Shown here piece by piece: positions 3,742 to 64,000 of a stretch of 64,000 nt of DNA. The translations under genes were made by a program, and so were the position numbers. Each line of letters opens with the position of its first letter. Positions within the stretch are counted from its first letter, which is position 1. Source of the DNA: an uncultured Prevotellaceae bacterium (GTDB lineage Bacteria > Bacteroidota > Bacteroidia > Bacteroidales > Bacteroidaceae); assembly GCA_900316975.1 (NCBI GenBank), contig ONFA01000008.1, forward strand, positions 4,164 through 68,163. Direction: 5' to 3'. The notes under the pieces are model-generated. The model worked only from the letters and a program-made list of their open reading frames with translations, had not been told where the DNA came from and did not search any database.

Positions 3742-3760
3742 ACATTTTCCAAGAACGGCA

Positions 3761-3768
3761 CAAAGATA
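3761..3768 (-). promoter_or_regulatory. -7 promoter box TATCTTTG for the histidine kinase gene, with ctcatt-type upstream module
   Basis: The minus strand reads ..ctcatttctcatttctcaattattttccgTATCTTTG, 20 nt before the ATG at 3741. The same TTTTCCGTATCTTTG module occurs at 52945 and 55833. Confidence 0.6.
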
Positions 3769-3887
3769 CGGAAAATAATTGAGAAATGAGAAATGAGAAT
3801 TGAGAATTGCCATGCGGGTTGCATTTAACCCCAATCGGTCATTGGTTTTCCTCATTCTCAATTCCGTACCCCTCGGGTACGACACAA

Positions 3888-30974: not shown

Positions 30975-32385
30975 ATCCTTTTTTTAATTTTTCCTCACGG
31001 AACTTCTTTCCATACTCCGATGGCGACATGCCATATTCAGCCTTGAAATTTTCCGTGAAACGCTTTGGGTTCGCATATCCGAGTTCGGCTGCAATGTCAG
31101 CAATCGGCATCGTCGTCTGTTCCAGATACTGTTTGCCACGCTTCAGACGAATCGTGCGGATGAACTCCGCAGGTCCCTTGCCTGTAATATTGATGAGTTT
31201 TTTATACAGATAAGTACGGCTTAGCGACAGTTCATGACCAAGCACTTCCACCGAAAACTCGGTGTCTGACATGTGTTCTTCACAAATCTTGATAGCACGC
31301 TGAATGAATTGTTCGTCCATCGACGTAATCGTGATTTCGCTCGGTGCCACATCAATCTTCTCGCGAAACTGACGCTGACGGGATTCCTTCTTCTCAATGA
31401 ACTTCTTCACTCTCAGACGGAGCATCTCCACATTGAACGGCTTCGTGATGTAGTCATCCGCGCCAATGCGCAAGCCTTCCATCTCCAATTGGTCGCCCCG
31501 ACGTCCTGTCAAGAGAATGACGGGAATATGCGACCATCGCAAGTCTGTCTTGATACGCTTGCAGAGTTCCAGACCGTCCATTTTCGGCATCGTCACGTCA
31601 CTCACCACCAAATCAATGCTGTCGTTCTCCTCCAGACGTTGCAATGCCACCTCACCGTTATTAGCAGTGATGACATTATATTCACCTCGGAAATAATCAT
31701 GCACGAAACGGCACATGTCAGGACTGTCGTCCACCATCAGCATGGTGAAGCGTTCGTCAGGCTGACCGTCACCCGTTGCCTGTTGTGCCCTATCCGTAAC
31801 CACCGCTGCCGCATTGTTATCATCAATTCCAACAGGCTCCGTCCGTTGTCCTTTGTCCGTTGTCTGTTGTCCGTTGTCTGTTGTCCGTTGTCCCCTATCT
31901 GGCACGACAGTAGCCGGAACCTGCGTCATCACAGCATCCACAGGAGGGATCATGGCAGAGACCACATTACCCTTCACACCGGCAGGCAACATATTCACTT
32001 GGTGCAACAGCAACTGGGCATTTCTCAGAATCATTTGTACACGCACCCTCACATCGTCAGTCAATGGTTCAGCCGCCATCTGTTGCAGCGGACTGATAAT
32101 GAGCGTAATGGGCGTCAACAATTCTTGACTCACCCCCGACAGCACCTGCTGTTTCAACTCCTCCAGTTCTTTCCGATGCTCCGAACGCATACGAAGCCTT
32201 TCAGCCTCTTGCTTTTTATGTTCACGCGTGAGTATCCAGCGGCAGAGGGCATAAACCCCTATCGCCACCAGCAGTACAGCGAACAAGACAGCCCACATGG
32301 AACCTTGTGTGAAGATTCCATCGCCATCTGTTGTCACCGCTTCTGCAATCAAAATGTTTCCCATGTGCGAAGTCATTTTATCCAT
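30961..32385 (-). CDS. HTCS remnant: short exo-stub + TM + degenerate DHp (His replaced by Gln) + REC + AraC HTH; no sensor, no ATPase domain
   Basis: TM segment [37 protein letters not shown] occupies the place of the SHEFRTPLTLI H-box. REC domain ([22 protein letters not shown]). AraC HTH ([25 protein letters not shown]). Confidence 0.85.
31841..31896. repeat. Eight tandem heptanucleotides GTCYNTT inside the CDS linker
   Basis: gtccgtt gtccttt gtccgtt gtctgtt gtccgtt gtctgtt gtccgtt gtcccct. It encodes the 7-aa periodic stretch [19 protein letters not shown]. Confidence 0.85.
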
Positions 32386-38804: not shown

Positions 38805-38920
38805 GGAGTTAAAGGAGTTATAAGGAGTTATCGCTCCGCTCAGGAGTTAAAAGCCGATACTCTAAAGAATGAAAGAATGAAGGAATGAAAAGTTGCCCTC
38901 AACTCTCAACTCCTCTAACT
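38805..38920 (-). repeat. Dispersed intergenic repeat family A, copy 2 (with 8-mer and heptad modules)
   Basis: GGAGTTATCGCTCCGCTCAGGAGTTAAAAGCCGATACTCTAAAGAATGAAAGAATGAAGGAATGAAAAGTTGCCCTCAACTCTCAACT is about 95% identical over roughly 90 nt to 45580-45660. Confidence 0.85.
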
Positions 38921-38937: not shown

Positions 38938-40314
38938 TTAATAAAATATCGTTGTAATGACCAATCCCACGATGGTGCTGACGATGACACTGACAAGACC
39001 TGGCATCATGAAGGAGTGGTTGAGCAGGTACTTGCCAATGACGGTGGTGCCTGAACGGTCAAAGTTCACGGTAGCGATGTCGGACGGATAGTTGGGGATG
39101 AAGAAGTAGCCATAGACGGAAGGGAGCACACCGAGCAACACGGGACCAGGGATGCCCAGCGAGTAAGCCAACGGTAGCATCGAAACCACTACGGCACCCT
39201 GACTGTTGATGAGCACAGACACAGCGAAGAAGGCAATGGAAATCGCCCAAGGATACTGGCTGACAATGCCTTCAAGCCCCTCCTGTATCTCGTCCATATA
39301 GTTGCTGAAATAAGTGTCGGCAAGCCATGCAATGCCATAGATAGCCACCACTGCCACCATGCCTGACTGCCACACAGAACCAGCCACAGCCTTCTTGGGA
39401 CTTGCTTTCGCAAAGATAATCATGGCGGCAGCAGCCATAATCATGACAATCTGGATGATGATGTTCATGCCGATAGGCTTCATCACAGGGTTGCCAGCAT
39501 CATCTAATTTGCCAGAATCGACCACTGGACGGATGTCGCACCCTGCAATCTGGAAGAGCGAGTACAACACGATGATCGCCAAGGCACCAAGGAAGATGAA
39601 GACGGAAATCTTAGCGTTTTTGTCCACCTCCTTATCAAGCAGCGAAGCCGTATCACCATACATATACTCTTTCAACTGAGGGTCAGCCAACCGAGCCTGA
39701 AACTTCGGATCCTTGTCAAGGTCTTTCCCTCGCTTGTAGGAACAAAGGGCAGCGGCAAAGATTCCGCACAGACTAGCAGGAATGGTCACGGCAATCACTT
39801 GCAGGTTGTTGACCTCAAAACCTGCTTCGTTGCTAATAACCACAAACGATGCCACAGCAGCAGCGATGGGCGAGCAGGTGATGCCCACCTGCGAAGCGAC
39901 AGAGGCGACAGCGCAAGGGCGTTCAGGCCGGATGCCCTTCTTCAAGGCGATGTCACAGATGATGGGCATGAGTGTGTACACCACGTGTCCTGTTCCGACC
40001 AGCACTGTGAGGAAGAACGTACACAGCGGCGCCAAGAAGGTGATATGTGCCGGATGTTTTCGCAGCAGTTTCTCCGCCAACTGGATGAGCCAATCCATGC
40101 CACCTGCCGCCTGCATGATGCCGGCACAAGTGACAGCAGCCACAATAATGTAAATCACGTCAGTGGGAGGATTACCCGGCTTCATACCAAAGCCCAACAC
40201 CAAAATGGCAAGACCGATGCCCGAGATGGCACCCAATGCCAAACTGCCATAGCGTGAGCCCACATAAAGCGCACCCAACACAATGAGCAGTTGCAAGATC
40301 ATGACAAAATCCAT
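38938..40314 (-). CDS. dcuB: Anaerobic C4-dicarboxylate transporter, DcuB-like
   Basis: LAEKLLRKHPAHITFLAPLCTFFLTVLVGTGHVVYTLMPIICDIALKKGIRPERP closely parallels E. coli DcuB. Confidence 0.9.
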   Translation of the reverse strand: MDFVMILQLLIVLGALYVGSRYGSLALGAISGIGLAILVLGFGMKPGNPPTDVIYIIVAAVTCAGIMQAAGGMDWLIQLAEKLLRKHPAHITFLAPLCTFFLTVLVGTGHVVYTLMPIICDIALKKGIRPERPCAVASVASQVGITCSPIAAAVASFVVISNEAGFEVNNLQVIAVTIPASLCGIFAAALCSYKRGKDLDKDPKFQARLADPQLKEYMYGDTASLLDKEVDKNAKISVFIFLGALAIIVLYSLFQIAGCDIRPVVDSGKLDDAGNPVMKPIGMNIIIQIVMIMAAAAMIIFAKASPKKAVAGSVWQSGMVAVVAIYGIAWLADTYFSNYMDEIQEGLEGIVSQYPWAISIAFFAVSVLINSQGAVVVSMLPLAYSLGIPGPVLLGVLPSVYGYFFIPNYPSDIATVNFDRSGTTVIGKYLLNHSFMMPGLVSVIVSTIVGLVITTIFY

Positions 40315-40358
40315 AGTTTTTTGTTTAAGATATTAGATTAAATGATGCAACATTGGGA

Positions 40359-40511
40359 CAAAGGTACAAAAAAGTTGAGAGTTAAGAGTTGAGAGTTGAG
40401 AGTTTTTTGTTGTTTAATGTCTTTTTTTCTCGGGAAAGTAACAATTCCTCATTCCTTTTTTCTTTTTTCATCTTCTCATTCTTTCATTTTTCTATTTTTT
40501 CCATACCTTTG
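40359..40511. promoter_or_regulatory. Bidirectional promoter cassette type B, copy 1
   Basis: Bounded by caaaggta (a TACCTTTG box on the minus strand) and TACCTTTG on the plus strand. The interior is GTTGAGA-type heptads followed by taacaattcctcattcc...ttctcattctttcatt. About 85-90% identical to 63566-63717. Confidence 0.75.
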
Positions 40512-40530
40512 CAACCAAAAGCCGACCAAC

Positions 40531-41541
40531 ATGTCACCATCCAACCAACAAGCGAGTGTAAGATTAACGGGAGTGAGTGCCCTACTCCATTTCCTCGTCG
40601 ATGGACTCTGCATCTGTTGTTTGTACCTCGCAACGGTAGGCAAAATGGACATCGTAACGACTTACGTGACCTACAATGTGTTGGCATTCCTGACACAACC
40701 CCTCACCGGGTGGTGGGCTGACTGGATGAGGCAGAGACATTGGATGTTGCTCGGTTCGGTGCTGTTACTGACGTTGGGTGTGGCAGCATGTCAACTGTCA
40801 ACCATCAACGAACAGTTCATCATGCCTACCGCAGTTTTGCTGGGTATCGGCAATTCGCTCTTTCACGTATGGGGCGGCAAGCAAGTGGCAGTCAACACAG
40901 GAAACGACATCCGCGCATTGGGGGTGTTCGTCTCAACTGGTGCATTCGGACTTGCGATCGGAGGGGTATTGGCATCGTGGTCCCTGTTGTATGTGTTTCT
41001 GCTGAGCATCTGTGTATTGGCGATACAGACCCTTCAGGCACAGACCCTCCCCTCACCCTCCCTACAGGGAGGGAGTAGTATCTCTATTAATGAAAAAACA
41101 AGTGAGCAAGGTAACCACCCCCTCCCTGTAGGGAGGGTGAGGGGAGGGTCTGTGGTGAGGGGAGGGTCTATTATCCTTCTCATCATGCTCGTCGTGGCAG
41201 GACGCTCTTTTACAGGTGAGGCATTCACGACGGGCATCACGAAAAATGCCATGCTCATCTTGTTGTTGGGAGCCACCTCGATGGCTGGAAAGATGGCTGG
41301 CGGATGGCTTGCCAAAAGCATGGGGATATGGAAAGCCTTGCTGCTGATGGTGGTGGGGACGATTCTCTGCTTCCTCGGCAAGGACCTGCACATCGCTGTG
41401 ATGCTCACGGGACTTTTCCTCATCAACTGCACCATGCCTGTCACCCTCTATTGGGCGAACACGCTGTTAAAAGGGTATGAGGGATTAGCGTTCGGACTGT
41501 TGGCGGCAGCATTGATACCAGGGTATCTGCTCGCCACATGA
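40531..41541 (+). CDS. Multi-pass membrane protein of unknown family carrying an in-frame palindromic insert
   Basis: ORF 40396..41541 trimmed to the ATG 20 nt downstream of the -7 box. About 9-10 TM helices. Motifs LHFLVDGLC and GNSLFHVWGG. The central loop is encoded by the 41041-41168 repeat. Confidence 0.7.
   Translation: MSPSNQQASVRLTGVSALLHFLVDGLCICCLYLATVGKMDIVTTYVTYNVLAFLTQPLTGWWADWMRQRHWMLLGSVLLLTLGVAACQLSTINEQFIMPTAVLLGIGNSLFHVWGGKQVAVNTGNDIRALGVFVSTGAFGLAIGGVLASWSLLYVFLLSICVLAIQTLQAQTLPSPSLQGGSSISINEKTSEQGNHPLPVGRVRGGSVVRGGSIILLIMLVVAGRSFTGEAFTTGITKNAMLILLLGATSMAGKMAGGWLAKSMGIWKALLLMVVGTILCFLGKDLHIAVMLTGLFLINCTMPVTLYWANTLLKGYEGLAFGLLAAALIPGYLLAT
41041..41168. repeat. Perfect 33-bp inverted repeat (46-bp spacer) plus partial direct duplication, inside a CDS
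   Basis: CAGACCCTCCCCTCACCCTCCCTACAGGGAGGG at 41041-41073 is the exact reverse complement of 41120-41152. GTGAGGGGAGGGTCT is repeated at 41137-41151 and 41154-41168. The G4 motif GGGAGGGTGAGGGGAGGG is at 41131-41148. Confidence 0.9.
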
Positions 41542-43449: not shown

Positions 43450-43508
43450 CAAAGATAAGAAAAAGTTTAGAGTTTAAGGATGAGAGTTAAGAGTTTTTTG
43501 TATCTTTG
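43450..43508. promoter_or_regulatory. Short bidirectional promoter cassette
   Basis: caaagata ... TATCTTTG flank four heptads (gtttaga gtttaag gatgaga gttaaga), between divergent patatin genes. Confidence 0.65.
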
Positions 43509-45553: not shown

Positions 45554-45722
45554 GAAGTTAAAGGAGTTAGAGGAGTTATCGCTCCGCTCAGAAGTTAAAG
45601 GCCGATACTCTAAAAAATGAAAGAATGAAGGAATGAAAAGTTGCCCTCAACTCTCAACTGTCAACTCTTAACTCTAAACTGTCAACTCTCAACTCTAAAC
45701 TGTCAACTCTCAACTCTTAACT
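45554..45722 (-). repeat. Dispersed intergenic repeat family A, copy 3, fused to an 11-unit heptad array
   Basis: Same core as copy 2. It is followed by caactct caactgt caactct taactct aaactgt ... from 45648, and the array runs into the stop codon at 45723-45725. Confidence 0.85.
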
Positions 45723-46145
45723 CTAAACCCTCATCCCTTTCAAGAACTTTCCAAACTCCTCCATCACACACTGTGTGGCAATCTCCACATTCTTCACCCT
45801 GCCGAAGTCCTCACGCAAACACATCGAATGCACATCACCTTCACTACCCCATGCCACCCAAATCTCCACTTCATGTCCCTCCCATGCTTCCGCATAACCT
45901 GTGGAAGCCAATGCATAGTCGGTATGGAACAATCGGCATGCCCCCTTCACCATCTCTTCCGCCACCTGACGCGACACCACACCATACCTCTCAATCATTT
46001 CTGCCGGCACACCCAACATTTGTTCCTTCACCTCATTCTGATATGCCACCAATCCACCCACAAAGTAACGACTCGCACCACTTCGAGCCGTGATGGCAGA
46101 CGCAATGCGACCACCCGTACACGATTCCGCTGTCGAAACTGTCAT
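45723..46145 (-). CDS. CinA-family C-terminal domain protein (PncC-like nicotinamide-nucleotide amidase)
   Basis: MTVSTAESCTGGRIASAITARSGASRYFVGGLVAYQNEVKEQMLGV is the canonical CinA/PncC block. ORF trimmed to the ATG at 46145 outside the promoter cassette. Confidence 0.85.
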   Translation of the reverse strand: MTVSTAESCTGGRIASAITARSGASRYFVGGLVAYQNEVKEQMLGVPAEMIERYGVVSRQVAEEMVKGACRLFHTDYALASTGYAEAWEGHEVEIWVAWGSEGDVHSMCLREDFGRVKNVEIATQCVMEEFGKFLKGMRV

Positions 46146-46175
46146 AAAACTTCTTCCTTTTGATGATTTGCGATG

Positions 46176-46316
46176 CAAAGGTAGGAAATAAAGTGAAAAG
46201 TGGAAAGTGAAAAGTGAAAAATCTATATTAGTAGCCATTCGGACTGTTCCTCATAACAAAGTAACTTAGATTTTTCACTTTTCACTTTCCACTTTTCACT
46301 TTATTTCCTACCTTTG
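46176..46316. promoter_or_regulatory. Perfectly palindromic bidirectional promoter cassette (50-bp arms)
   Basis: 46176-46225 (caaaggtaggaaataaagtgaaaagtggaaagtgaaaagtgaaaaatcta) is the exact reverse complement of 46267-46316. Each arm ends in a TACCTTTG -7 box facing outward. The spacer is 41 bp. Confidence 0.85.
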
Positions 46317-46347
46317 CAAAAACTTCAATCTTTCAAATCTCATCAAC

Positions 46348-52904: not shown

Positions 52905-52944
52905 TGTTAATGATTTGATAAAAGATAATAATAGGTTTTGGTGA

Positions 52945-53076
52945 CAAAGATACGGAAAAATTAGGAATGAGGAGTCTGGAATGAAGAATTATTTGCCATC
53001 TTTGGCATTTTTTATAGGAAATAGTAACAAATCGCTAAACGCCAAACGCTAAACTCAAAACTTTTCCGTACATTTG
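52945..53076. promoter_or_regulatory. Bidirectional promoter cassette type C, copy 1
   Basis: Bounded by caaagata and TACATTTG. Its reverse complement is about 80-85% identical to 55708-55840 (gtttagYg heptads, atttgttactatttcc, aataattcYtcattcc, tttttccgtatcttYg). Confidence 0.75.
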
Positions 53077-53106
53077 CAATGTAAACAAACCAAATTGACA
53101 ATACGC

Positions 53107-55680: not shown

Positions 55681-55707
55681 AAATAGTAATGTGTTTGAAA
55701 TCGGGTA

Positions 55708-55840
55708 CAAAGGTACGAAAAAGTTTAGAGTTTAGTGTTTAGTGTTTAGTGATTTGTTACTATTTCCCATAAAAAAACGACTAAGATGACAAATAATTCC
55801 TCATTCCTAACTTCTCATTCCCAATTTTTCCGTATCTTCG
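55708..55840. promoter_or_regulatory. Bidirectional promoter cassette type C, copy 2
   Basis: Bounded by caaaggta and TATCTTCG. The interior is gtttaga gtttagt gtttagt gtttagt heptads followed by ...aataattcctcattcctaacttctcattcccaatttttccg. Confidence 0.75.
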
Positions 55841-55861
55841 CCACACAAAACCTACAAGACC

Positions 55862-56704: not shown

Positions 56705-56710
56705 GTGAAT

Positions 56711-56797
56711 AGTGAAAAGCGAAAAATCTAAGTTACTTTTGCAAATGAAAAGCCAACAAGCTGAATGGCAGGTTACTTGAATTTTTCACTTTTAACT
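56711..56797. repeat. Imperfect inverted repeat between the ATPase and DUF4435-like genes
   Basis: AGTGAAAAGCGAAAAATCTAAGTTAC (56711-56736) pairs with GTTACTTGAATTTTTCACTTTTAACT (56772-56797). It shares the gtgaaaaatctaagttac module with 1145-1165 and 46215-46280. Confidence 0.7.
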
Positions 56798-56807
56798 TCT
56801 ATGGCTT

Positions 56808-61523: not shown

Positions 61524-63524
61524 TCACTTCACCTTCAGACGAATCACGTTAGCCGAATAAGGTTCAACCGTCAGTTTCATCTTCTTCGCAATCTTGACAT
61601 CCTTCGTCTGAGGAGCCACAGGCTGAGCGTCGAAGTTGTTCTCAGCATCAATCGAGGCATTGCTGATGGTGGTCATCGGAGCCACAGATGGGAAGCCCTT
61701 GAACTTGCCCAAGTCGATGGTGGCAGTCTTTGCTTCAGCAGCGGCATTGATGAGTTTAATGTACAACTCACCCTTCTCCGTGTTGAGCACAGCCGAAGTG
61801 CCTTGATACTTGTCACCGCCCTCGAACTTAGCCACATCGCCATAGTAGTAGTCGCCAGAAGTGGTGCCGAACATCTGCTGCACGTAGTAACTGCAAGTGT
61901 AGATGACCTTCTCGTTGTCGAAGTAGATGAGGTCAGGATTCCAACTCTCGTGGTTCTTCTTGCAGAAGAGAGGAGCATAACTTGTCATGGTCACCACGTC
62001 GCCGTTTCGTTCGATGCCAAGAAGATAGAGACCTTCGTAAAGCGCATCAGCCAGTTTCTTATCCTTAGCGGCATATTCACCCAAATAAACCTTTGTCTTG
62101 CGGTCGCGTGGGTAGTTGTCATAGTTGGCCTGGTTGTCGAGGAAGTAGTTGCGTGGCTCGTAGTAGTGCTCATCCAGAATGTCCACACCTGTCTCTTCTG
62201 CAATCCTCCAACCGTTCTCGAAGTCAGGATTGCCCTTGTGAGAGCCAGGACCTGCTGTGCCGACAATCACAATGTCAGGATATTTCGCACGTACACGATC
62301 ATATATGTACTTGAAACGCTCCTCAAACTCCTTCGTAATCTTCTCCTCGTTGCCGAGACCCAGATACTTCAGGTTGAAAGGCTTGGGGTGACCTGCTTCC
62401 GCACGCACCTTACCCCACTTGGTGTTCACGTCGCCGTTTGCCCACTCAATGAGGTCAAGCGCTTCGTTCACCCATTCATCCATCTCGCTCATAGGCACAG
62501 CATCCTGAGCCTGAGTGCGCATGCTCCAGCCACCATTCGTACCCTGGCAGTTCACGCCACAAGGAAGAATAGGAAGTGGCTCCATGCCAAGGTCTTCGCA
62601 GAACTGGAAGTACTCATAGTAACCGAGACCCATTGACTGGTGATAGCCCCAAGTGTTCTTCAAGCCGCGACGTTGCTCCTTCGGACCCACCGTCGTCTTC
62701 CAGCGGTAAGTGTCCCAGAAACCGTCACCGCCACCATGCACCACGCAACCGCCAGGGAAACGCATGAACTTAGGCTCCAGACCTGCCAGCGCCTCAGCGA
62801 GGTCCTTGCGCAAACCATGACCCTTGTAAGTGTCCTGTGGCATCAGCGAAACCATATCAATGTCAAGGTCGCCCTGAGTCAGCACCAAAATCTGCAAACT
62901 GGCATTTGTGCAGTCCTCCGCTGACGTCAGCGTGGCCTCATATTTTTTCCAAGCAGCGTCACCCACATTCAGCGTGGTCTCAGCCAACACGGTAGGCTGA
63001 GCGCCCCATCCCTGTCCTGGCTTCACCAGCACCACACGCACCTGCTTTGCAGCACCAAAGTTGCGGAAGAACACGGAGAAGTCATACTTCGCACCAGCCT
63101 TCACGCTGATGCCGTCGAAACCGTCGTTCTCCAAGCCAAAGCCCTTCCAACCTGCATAGTCGTAATACTCCTTCACACGCTCCGTGTGCAGACGCATATA
63201 GGTAGGGTTGTTAGGATGGATGGGGTTGTCCATGCGTACCTGCAACATACCCAGCGAATGACCCGGACGTGCCGTTTTCCATGATGTACCAGGCCCCCAT
63301 CCGTCACGCTCGTTAGGATTGTACTCAAACGAGCCATTCTCTATCAACTCAGCATACAAACCACCATCAGCCGAGTAACTGATGTCTTCGAAGAAGATGC
63401 CGATGAGTTCCTTACTGATTTTCTTACCTCCTGCAGGAGCCTTCACTTTCTGAGCCGAAGCCGACAGCGGTGCTCCCAAAAATGCTGCAAGCGTAACAGC
63501 CTGCATAACGTTTCTGAATGACAT
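61524..63524 (-). CDS. GH51-like alpha-L-arabinofuranosidase
   Basis: GGLYAELIENGSFEY, FMRFPGGCVVHGG, YLGLGNEE and VYLGEYA follow the GH51 block order. Signal peptide present. Confidence 0.75.
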   Translation of the reverse strand: MSFRNVMQAVTLAAFLGAPLSASAQKVKAPAGGKKISKELIGIFFEDISYSADGGLYAELIENGSFEYNPNERDGWGPGTSWKTARPGHSLGMLQVRMDNPIHPNNPTYMRLHTERVKEYYDYAGWKGFGLENDGFDGISVKAGAKYDFSVFFRNFGAAKQVRVVLVKPGQGWGAQPTVLAETTLNVGDAAWKKYEATLTSAEDCTNASLQILVLTQGDLDIDMVSLMPQDTYKGHGLRKDLAEALAGLEPKFMRFPGGCVVHGGGDGFWDTYRWKTTVGPKEQRRGLKNTWGYHQSMGLGYYEYFQFCEDLGMEPLPILPCGVNCQGTNGGWSMRTQAQDAVPMSEMDEWVNEALDLIEWANGDVNTKWGKVRAEAGHPKPFNLKYLGLGNEEKITKEFEERFKYIYDRVRAKYPDIVIVGTAGPGSHKGNPDFENGWRIAEETGVDILDEHYYEPRNYFLDNQANYDNYPRDRKTKVYLGEYAAKDKKLADALYEGLYLLGIERNGDVVTMTSYAPLFCKKNHESWNPDLIYFDNEKVIYTCSYYVQQMFGTTSGDYYYGDVAKFEGGDKYQGTSAVLNTEKGELYIKLINAAAEAKTATIDLGKFKGFPSVAPMTTISNASIDAENNFDAQPVAPQTKDVKIAKKMKLTVEPYSANVIRLKVK

Positions 63525-63565
63525 AAGTTATTAAGTTTTTGTGTTGGTTATTAAGTTTTCGGGCA

Positions 63566-64000
<435 letters not shown>

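Follow-up and report, generated by a model that had tools for sequence, protein, structure and literature searches.

A recurring heptad-repeat cassette with putative outward promoters between divergent genes of uncultured rumen Prevotellaceae

Introduction

Bacteroidetes promoter architecture is known only as a -7 box with a weak -33 element, and to our knowledge nothing has been described about promoter architecture in the uncultured Prevotellaceae that dominate the rumen. Invertible promoters of Bacteroidales have inverted repeats around a single promoter, which is flipped by a recombinase. In Neisseria, the Correia repeat-enclosed elements, reportedly treated by Siddique et al. in 2011, are intergenic sequences of about 100–155 bp whose inverted ends carry outward promoters. 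They are transposon-like, duplicate a TA target, occur in all intergenic contexts and are often co-transcribed.

BrickBuilt of Porphyromonas gingivalis is always intergenic, is present in about 19 copies and has bidirectional promoter activity (PMC4596501). Its authors also liken it to putative mobile promoters (PMC4596501). Matus-Garcia, Nijveen and van Passel (2012) define these as sequences that precede unrelated genes of the same genome and share at least 80% identity across 50 nt or more (PMC3575422). The hmw1A/hmw2A promoters of Haemophilus influenzae contain 7-bp repeats in 9–28 units, whose number differs from strain to strain and works as a rheostat (PMC2424069).

Here we describe a cassette family found in a 64,000-nt stretch of DNA from an uncultured Prevotellaceae bacterium (hereafter the window) and in related genomes. 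Like Correia elements, the cassettes are intergenic repeats of similar size, with ends that resemble inverted repeats and with putative outward-facing promoters; unlike them, they lack a target duplication and are nearly confined to divergent junctions. With the invertible promoters they share the Bacteroidales host, the TAnnTTTG promoter and inverted repeats, but a cassette has two fixed putative outward promoters at its ends, so flipping it would change nothing. Tandem heptanucleotides in a promoter region are common to the hmw1A/hmw2A repeats and the cassettes, although the latter have 4–5 units that are stable across strains and species. BrickBuilt likewise belongs to the Bacteroidales, is intergenic and is modular, with a tandem repeat between leader and tail subunits (PMC4596501). 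Its own features are 23-nt repeats in a single direct array that expands and contracts between strains, together with 12-bp terminal repeats, 4-bp target duplications and filled and empty sites (PMC4596501); none of these features was found for the cassettes, in which 7-bp repeats form two mirrored arms ending at -7 boxes. As for putative mobile promoters, one pair of cassettes fits the working definition (89% over 153 nt, unrelated genes). However, whereas that study is a similarity-only catalogue (PMC3575422), the cassettes have a defined architecture of two putative promoters, heptad arms and a centre, lie almost only at divergent junctions and have a documented conservation across species.

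A preliminary description of the window, made from its sequence, had named no earlier account of such a module. The concept is in fact known from putative mobile promoters, Correia elements and BrickBuilt, but the particular family was not found in literature on Prevotella heptamers, 7-bp tandem repeats, promoter motifs, Bacteroidetes MITEs and the literal heptad string. The cassette family and its extreme conservation thus appear to be new, while the general concept has precedents.

Results

Two unrelated gene pairs share one cassette

Copy A (40359–40511, 153 nt) and copy B (63566–63717, 152 nt), which had been judged by eye to be about 85–90% identical along their full length, match in 137 of 154 alignment columns (89%). 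Shuffled controls reached 52.5 ± 2.1%, with a maximum of 58% in 500 shuffles. The 60-nt flanks of the two copies are 52–54% identical on each side, which is background; the two outward-facing TAnnTTTG boxes therefore mark the precise limits of the likeness. Identity is 87–90% in the left arm, the centre and the right arm alike, with 87.5% in the non-repetitive centre, so the match is more than a low-complexity repeat. The parts of both copies and their neighbours are listed below, with the strand where a feature has one.

40359–40366, - strand: left -7 box of copy A, CAAAGGTA (TACCTTTG on the - strand), putative dcuB promoter; the dcuB ATG lies 44 nt beyond
40373–40404: left arm of copy A, 4.6 GTTGAGA heptads, one of them GTTAAGA; dcuB sense strand nearly G-free (Tandem Repeats Finder, composition)
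40405–40452: centre of copy A, with a T-run, a short dyad TTTC-TCGG-GAAA and the probe box AAAGTAACAATTCCTCAT at 40435–40452
40453–40503: right arm of copy A, 51 nt, T/C-rich, zero G, period 7–8 (TTCTCAT / TCTTTCAT)
40504–40511, + strand: right -7 box of copy A, TACCTTTG, putative promoter of the MFS gene, 19 nt from the ATG at 40531
63566–63573, - strand: left -7 box of copy B, CAAAGATA, putative GH51 arabinofuranosidase promoter, 41 nt from the ATG
63578–63611: left arm of copy B, 4.9 GTTGAAA / GTTGAGA heptads (Tandem Repeats Finder)
63612–63658: centre of copy B, containing AAAGTAACAATTCCTCAT at 63641–63658
63659–63709: right arm of copy B, T/C-rich, G-free, period about 8
63710–63717, + strand: right -7 box of copy B, TACCTTTG, putative tyrS promoter; tyrS ATG at 63752
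38938–40314, - strand: dcuB, anaerobic C4-dicarboxylate transporter (DcuA_DcuB domain), left neighbour of copy A
40531–41541, + strand: MFS transporter gene (MFS_1 domain, frame checked), right neighbour of copy A
61524–63524, - strand: GH51 alpha-L-arabinofuranosidase gene (Alpha-L-AF_C Pfam domain), left neighbour of copy B
63752–64000, + strand: 5' part of tyrS (tRNA-synt_1b), which exits the window, right neighbour of copy B

CAAAG(G/A)TA opens both copies and TACCTTTG closes both, as the preliminary description had read them. Its four or five GTTGARA heptads correspond to 4.6 units in copy A and 4.9 in copy B of a heptad reported by Tandem Repeats Finder as AGTTGAG/AAAGTTG, and the domains found (DcuA_DcuB and MFS_1 beside copy A, Alpha-L-AF_C and tRNA-synt_1b beside copy B) agree with the neighbours that it had named. 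The two gene pairs are both divergent and mutually unrelated. On their sense strands the type B arms are pyrimidine-rich, with 0 or 1 G each. Single-base indels separate A from B. A small ORF within the cassette was considered as well: in copy A, the ATG at 40417 shares the reading frame of the MFS gene, but copy B is out of frame, which together with the 1-nt indels rules it out.

The cassettes form a family in one rumen clade

To search outside the window, we used the box-free central 18-mer AAAGTAACAATTCCTCAT as a probe and scanned one genome per species from 185,579 species. There were 48 hits, about 27 of which came from uncultured rumen Prevotellaceae (Bacteroidaceae in GTDB), with 5–7 matches per genome in RUI029 and RUG204. 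About 20 scattered single matches in unrelated phyla are close to the roughly 17 estimated by chance for an 18-mer in so large a collection. No named cultured species among the 185,579 species genomes matched, and no cassette was detected in about 330 kb of more distant Bacteroidales loci (DcuB 70–84% identical, metagenome scan), so the family appears to be limited to a single uncultured clade. GTDB does not include the window's species among its representatives, the nearest of which is RUI029, with 78% nucleotide identity in dcuB and about 85% in other genes. Assemblies from cattle rumen commonly contain the window's species.

All but two of the Prevotellaceae matches have both boxes and a common layout. 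The left half consists of CAAAG(G/A)TA, about 5 nt, about four GGAATKA heptads, ATTATTTGC and about 10 variable nt. The centre has a T-run, a short dyad and an A-run, followed by AAAGTAACAATTCC, and the right half has about three and a half TCCTMAT heptads, about 10 nt and TA(C/T)CTTTG. Distal boxes, GGAATTATTTG on one side and AAAGTAACAATTCC on the other, thus frame the T-run/A-run centre, with mirrored heptads outside them. Because the halves mirror each other, every copy also matches on the opposite strand. Box-to-box length is mostly 131–134 bp (about 133), with others at 111, 126 and 152–155 bp, and the main length classes are about 21 bp, or three heptads, apart.

A hidden Markov model (HMM) built from the aligned copies added members that the probe had not seeded, namely 55707–55841, 52944–53077 and 46175–46317 in the window and second copies at two outside loci (L002, L003). 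Type B shares the boxes, T-runs and right distal box with the family; it departs from it in the GTTGARA left arm, in the longer T/C-rich right arm of period 7–8 and in being non-palindromic. One locus (L042) has a GTTGARA left arm and almost no right arm, and others (L005/L033 and L019) have the long right arm joined to other left arms, which indicates that the arms are modular. Among the paralogs of the family, the A/B pair (89%) is one of the most similar. No tyrS orthologues were found among the retrieved loci. We conclude that the two 150-bp look-alikes are true members of a recurring cassette family in a clade of rumen Prevotellaceae.

Further cassettes in the window

Run on the window, the family HMM matched 40358–40512, 63565–63718, 55707–55841, 52944–53077 and 46175–46317. 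The members besides copies A and B are the following.

52945–53075: type C1 member, between a TonB-dependent-receptor-like gene and a nucleosidase-like gene
55708–55840: type C2 member, an inverted copy of C1, 83–88% complementary
46174–46318: palindromic member with near-perfect GTGAAAA-heptad arms, 57 nt each, 96% complementary
43450–43508: short form, two boxes with a single heptad array between them; member of repeat family D1
3760–3865: weak member in a tandem (- -) context, HMM E = 1.4e-4, right box decayed to TACCCCTC

Types C1 and C2 and the palindrome at 46174–46318 belong to the same family and have heptads other than those of type B. In RUI029, the type C1 orthologue has a canonical right arm, unlike the window's. 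Cassettes occupy 6 of 8 divergent junctions in the window versus 1 of 33 other junctions (Fisher p = 4e-5). The count of six out of eight had already been given in the preliminary description, and it holds: five were recovered by the family HMM and 43450–43508 through D1. Autocorrelation in the window's intergenic DNA was 0.349 at lag 7 and 0.326 at lag 14, with about 0.28–0.30 at neighbouring lags, and coding DNA of the window gave no period-7 signal; the expected periodicity of seven is thus present in intergenic DNA only. Heptad arrays were also found at convergent, tandem and 5'-UTR positions, so heptads are not exclusive to promoters.

Cassettes lie between divergent genes and end in -7 boxes

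At 24 of 26 Prevotellaceae matches to AAAGTAACAATTCCTCAT, the gene to the left is encoded on the - strand and the gene to the right on the + strand, and both start just outside the boxes. About 16 distinct junctions are represented, of which about 15 are divergent; with 25% expected as background, the binomial p is about 1e-8. The neighbouring genes, as read from the N-terminal sequences of flanking ORFs, include purD, polA, nadB, mutY, pheS and dcuB. Since the probe contains no box, it tests the enrichment fairly, and the predicted concentration of copies between divergent genes was found outside the window as it was within.

From box end to ATG, the median distance is 27 nt (interquartile range 19–33 nt). 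This fits the leader length typical of the phylum, the 5' UTR of B. thetaiotaomicron having a mode of 23 nt and a median of 32 nt (PMC7366714). The TAnnTTTG motif stands at both ends of copies A and B and in 24 of 25 aligned family members; in B. thetaiotaomicron, the -7 motif is found upstream of 81% of primary transcription starts (PMC7366714). The TTTG of the sigma-ABfr -33 element, which lies 19–21 nt upstream of the -7 motif, is missing at the expected spacing in the cassettes as read from their sequence; TTCC or CTTTC from the heptads stands in that position. In other Bacteroidetes the -33 element is weak or absent (PMC7366714). TTTG occurs 21 times in cassette interiors versus 40.9 ± 5.1 in shuffles, a twofold depletion, and depletion of full TAnnTTTG motifs within the interiors was not significant. 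These results support the earlier picture of a recurring two-faced module bounded by outward -7 boxes, and the distances from box to ATG fit Bacteroides leaders.

Conservation and inheritance at each junction

The cassette is more strongly conserved than the coding DNA beside it. Among five species, it is 90–99% identical at the purD junction, where the adjoining 390 nt of coding sequence are 73–94% and the leaders 44–91% identical; its repeat number is the same in four of the five, and one species has one heptad less. Only one substitution and one 2-nt indel in a T-run separate the cassette interior of the window from that of RUI029 at the dcuB junction; for dcuB itself the identity is 77.7%, and for the leaders about 52%. 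Each -7 box there differs by one base. As the boxes vary while the interior is constant, they behave as flank and not as element ends. An assembly chimera behind the RUI029 interior was ruled out, because two switches would have to fall within 150 bp of an assembly made with k=141 and because the two copies differ by the substitution and the indel.

Mean identity is 93% between orthologous cassettes and 76% (maximum 90%) between paralogs of the same genome. Copies have therefore been inherited at their own junction with no homogenisation inside the genome, and within-genome concerted evolution is ruled out. Cassettes, including their repeat number, are identical in 12 metagenome contigs, which were retrieved by exact protein identity and thus represent near-identical strains.

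Replacement of arms and interiors

A lineage whose dcuB is nearer to the window's than that of RUI029 (84–86% identical) has the same MFS-dcuB junction, with leaders almost identical to those of RUI029. Its cassette interior is wholly different: both arms are built of AATTGAK heptads, the centre is another one, and the switch falls exactly at the boxes. Among the type C members, the right arm of 52945–53075 is different in RUI029, and for 55708–55840 that genome has GTGAAAA heptads and another right-hand neighbour. In a relative with an 88% identical GH51 gene, this gene lies in a tandem context, where its putative promoter consists of a terminator hairpin and then TTTTTTGTACCTTTGCA, and no array is present. 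The GH51-tyrS junction and its cassette are hence specific to the window's lineage, and the TTTTTTGTACCTTTGCA core without an array suggests that the array is dispensable for the existence of a promoter.

Overall, these comparisons demonstrate that cassettes are inherited vertically at their junctions and that, now and then, a single arm or all of the interior between the boxes is replaced. The preliminary description had called the module portable. Replacement of arms and interiors and the lineage-specific GH51-tyrS junction favour this indirectly, but inheritance is mostly vertical (93% versus 76%), target-site duplications are lacking in 16 copies and the 12 contigs of near-identical strains are identical. 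The gain or loss of cassettes that it had proposed to look for did not appear as empty sites: each of the five species has a cassette at the purD junction, and related junctions show replacement.

Folding and covariation of the arms

The canonical cassette has a fold z-score of -9.2 and the palindrome at 46174 one of -17.6, while type B gives +1.6 and -1.5 and type C +0.6. Covariation between the arms of 19 canonical copies has a term of about zero, with a two-sided change in 2 of 33 pairs. In type B, the inverted repeat is limited to the boxes of 8–11 bp, which two promoters explain equally well. A selected hairpin or cruciform was thus rejected, since the strong folding of canonical copies is not shared by types B and C and the arms lack covariation. 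With no compensatory change and a non-folding type B, function would lie at the level of DNA sequence and not of a hairpin, and the mirror symmetry would represent two opposed copies of one upstream design.

Discussion

On the basis of these sequence comparisons, we regard the cassette, with a probability of roughly 0.6, as an upstream module shared by two back-to-back promoters, which would have spread by ancient duplication or recombination and not by active transposition. Two promoters of the sigma-ABfr type (Bacteroidetes housekeeping) would stand back to back, each using TAnnTTTG at about -7. The two outward boxes, which are probably active promoters, would form the ends of the cassette, and each copy would be a complete upstream region common to both genes. 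Upstream of each box, the region comprises a T-rich stretch and about four 7-bp repeats with a pyrimidine-rich, nearly G-free sense strand (45–50 nt), and further in the distal box (GGAATTATTTG or AAAGTAACAATTCC, depending on the side) and the central T-run/A-run. The interior may act as duplex DNA, either UP-element-like or as a protein-binding platform; alternatively, it may be a spacer whose defined length would fix the geometry between the two polymerases and which would keep stray promoter motifs out of the space between them. The family could have spread, and type B could have come to lie at two junctions, by ancient duplication, by ectopic conversion or by shuffling of genes, presumably via recombination at the conserved box/T-run and centre sequences and without an active transposon.

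Ordinary promoter function does not explain the near-invariance of about 130 bp where paralogs differ by 10–40%. This near-invariance argues for more than a spacer, and the replaceability of the arms argues that the design and not the exact sequence matters. It is conceivable, and we put this forward tentatively from the same comparisons, that the cassette represents a new kind of cis-regulatory module in bacteria: a symmetric heptad platform of fixed length through which a clade-specific factor or supercoiling would couple both genes, and whose interior would be swapped at the -7 boxes without a transposase, possibly between species. In the supercoiling variant, the platform would respond to negative supercoiling between the diverging polymerases. 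An exchangeable platform would cover both the near-invariance (one substitution versus 22% gene divergence) and the different interior of the same design in the sister lineage.

Several features recall instead a MITE, a non-autonomous transposon comparable to Correia elements or BrickBuilt, which would have become largely immobile, would have outward promoters in its terminal inverted repeats and would have been kept only between divergent genes. The two ends look like inverted repeats (TGCAAAGGTA ... TACCTTTGCA), canonical copies form long palindromes whose z-scores range from -9 to -18, each genome has many copies, and promoter-active precedents exist (PMC3575422, PMC4596501). The sharp-edged interior swap at the dcuB junction, the copy at the GH51-tyrS junction that is missing from the 88%-identical relative and the decayed copy in a tandem context at 3760–3865 also point this way. 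We nevertheless consider this origin unlikely. No target-site duplication of 3 bp or more was found in 16 copies when offsets of 0–4 from the boundary were allowed, and neither the presence of the cassettes nor their repeat number varied among 12 metagenome contigs of near-identical strains. All five species have a cassette at the purD junction, and related junctions show replacement instead of emptiness. Orthologous copies are far more alike than paralogous ones, and 24 of 26 copies sit between divergent genes, whose start codons lie at leader distance from either end. Between the window and RUI029 the boxes differ and the interior is the same, and type B has no inverted repeat beyond its boxes. 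Furthermore, phage and plasmid collections (blastn) and viral contigs (18-mer scan) contained no cassette match.

Tandem 7-bp repeats directly upstream of promoters might also suggest a simple-sequence contingency locus, in which slippage alters promoter strength or phase, and tuning by repeat number has a precedent (PMC2424069). The arms have only 4–5 units, however, and their number is constant in the 12 contigs of near-identical strains and in four of the five purD species, whereas the hmw loci have 9–28 units that vary between isolates (PMC2424069); slippage is accordingly a very unlikely basis for the cassette. A structured non-coding RNA or leader transcribed across it, for which the long hairpin that canonical copies would form could speak, is highly improbable: Rfam gave no match at the gathering score over the window and none at E <= 1 for 40250–40600, the cassette lies upstream of both outward-facing boxes, the covariation term is about 0 with 2 of 33 pairs two-sided, types B and C fold no better than shuffled sequences, and the single-base indels between A and B exclude a small ORF. 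Finally, both type B regions are AT-rich and repetitive, as two low-complexity intergenic regions resembling each other by chance or convergence would be, but 89% identity against a maximum of 58% in 500 shuffles, 87.5% in the non-repetitive centre, the sharp edges and family HMM E-values of 1e-19 to 1e-26 leave this with next to no probability.

A shared upstream module of back-to-back promoters would mean that one clade has a stereotyped unit of about 133 bp, better conserved than protein sequences, at many housekeeping divergent pairs (purD, polA, nadB, mutY, tyrS, dcuB and others). Its most striking feature is the combination of near-invariance with unit-wise replacement. If functional, the module points to a new DNA-binding factor or structural mechanism, would provide ready-made bidirectional promoters for Prevotella engineering and would be a natural system for the duplication and swapping of regulatory modules without transposases. 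The cassettes also bear on genome annotation: in the window, several start codons had been called within them, for example at 43480 and 53074 and for an ORF from 40396.

Heptad repeats in intergenic DNA

Autocorrelation across all intergenic DNA of the window (5.75 kb) was 0.349, 0.326 and 0.302 at lags of 7, 14 and 21, respectively, with values of approximately 0.28-0.30 at other lags. No period-7 autocorrelation was found in the coding DNA of the window. Heptads (7-bp repeats), which form the arms of the two-way promoter cassettes between divergent genes, were also located in the following features.

1114-1358, long palindrome at a convergent junction
56705-56807, long palindrome at a tandem junction
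1124, 46190, 46258 and 56703, four occurrences of the module (GTGAAWA)n-AATCTAAGTTACTTT
38823-38911 and 45571-45659, two copies of an 89-nt intergenic module
45646-45733, array of 12.6 CTCAACT repeats after the second copy of the 89-nt module
2346-2379, array of 4.9 TCCGTTG repeats within a long ORF
31841-31901, array of 7.6 GTCCGTT repeats within a long ORF

In both long palindromes, GTGAAWA/GGAGTTA heptad arrays enclose an ordinary terminator hairpin. Because such palindromes occupy convergent and tandem junctions and the (GTGAAWA)n-AATCTAAGTTACTTT module recurs, heptad arrays are a general building material of the intergenic DNA of this genome and are not limited to promoters. Short-period arrays near dcuB were also seen in more distant rumen Bacteroidales (AACTTTR at locus L069, CTATAAA at L123, TTTTCAC at L126 and a period of 8-9 at L130).

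The two copies of the 89-nt module, 97% identical to each other and each flanked by same-strand genes, are composed of the heptads GGAGTTA, GAATGAA and CTCAACT. The CTCAACT array has a super-period of 21 nt. The GTCCGTT array has the same super-period, corresponding to seven codons, so that in-frame linkers within ORFs may be another context in which heptads are tolerated.

Cassette lengths and exchange between copies

The box-to-box lengths of the cassettes cluster at 111, 131-134 and 152-155 bp (family alignment, the palindrome at 46174-46318, and locus L032); lengths of 126 and ~140 bp fall outside these clusters. The classes step by ~21 bp, that is, three heptads or roughly two helical turns, the independent junctions being too few for a test of helical phasing.

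The type C cassettes at 52945-53075 and 55708-55840 are mutually inverted copies 2.6 kb apart, which enclose two convergent genes. In RUI029, the closest GTDB representative genome, the gene order of this region is unchanged, yet both cassettes differ, which suggests conversion between neighbouring cassettes rather than inversion.

The MFS transporter gene and its junction with dcuB

The MFS transporter gene (40531..41541, +) carries a G+C-rich, in-frame inverted repeat at 41039-41154, with arms of 41 nt that are 95% complementary and spaced by 34 nt. The repeat covers aa 170-208 of 336, near the middle of the protein, and on this basis is taken to encode part of the presumed central loop of the transporter. 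A shorter and weaker version is present in the relative L061, whose MFS gene has a 5' end like that of the window and a leader like those of RUI029 and L148. Such mosaic flanks at the MFS-dcuB junction (L061 versus L037 versus L148-150) indicate that homologous recombination is probably frequent among these co-resident rumen lineages.

ORF calls within cassettes

In these genomes, genes that are annotated automatically may reach too far, into cassette sequence. Mechanically called ORF starts lie inside cassettes at 43480, 53074 and 40396; for example, a start codon was called at the TTG within TACATTTG (53068-53075).
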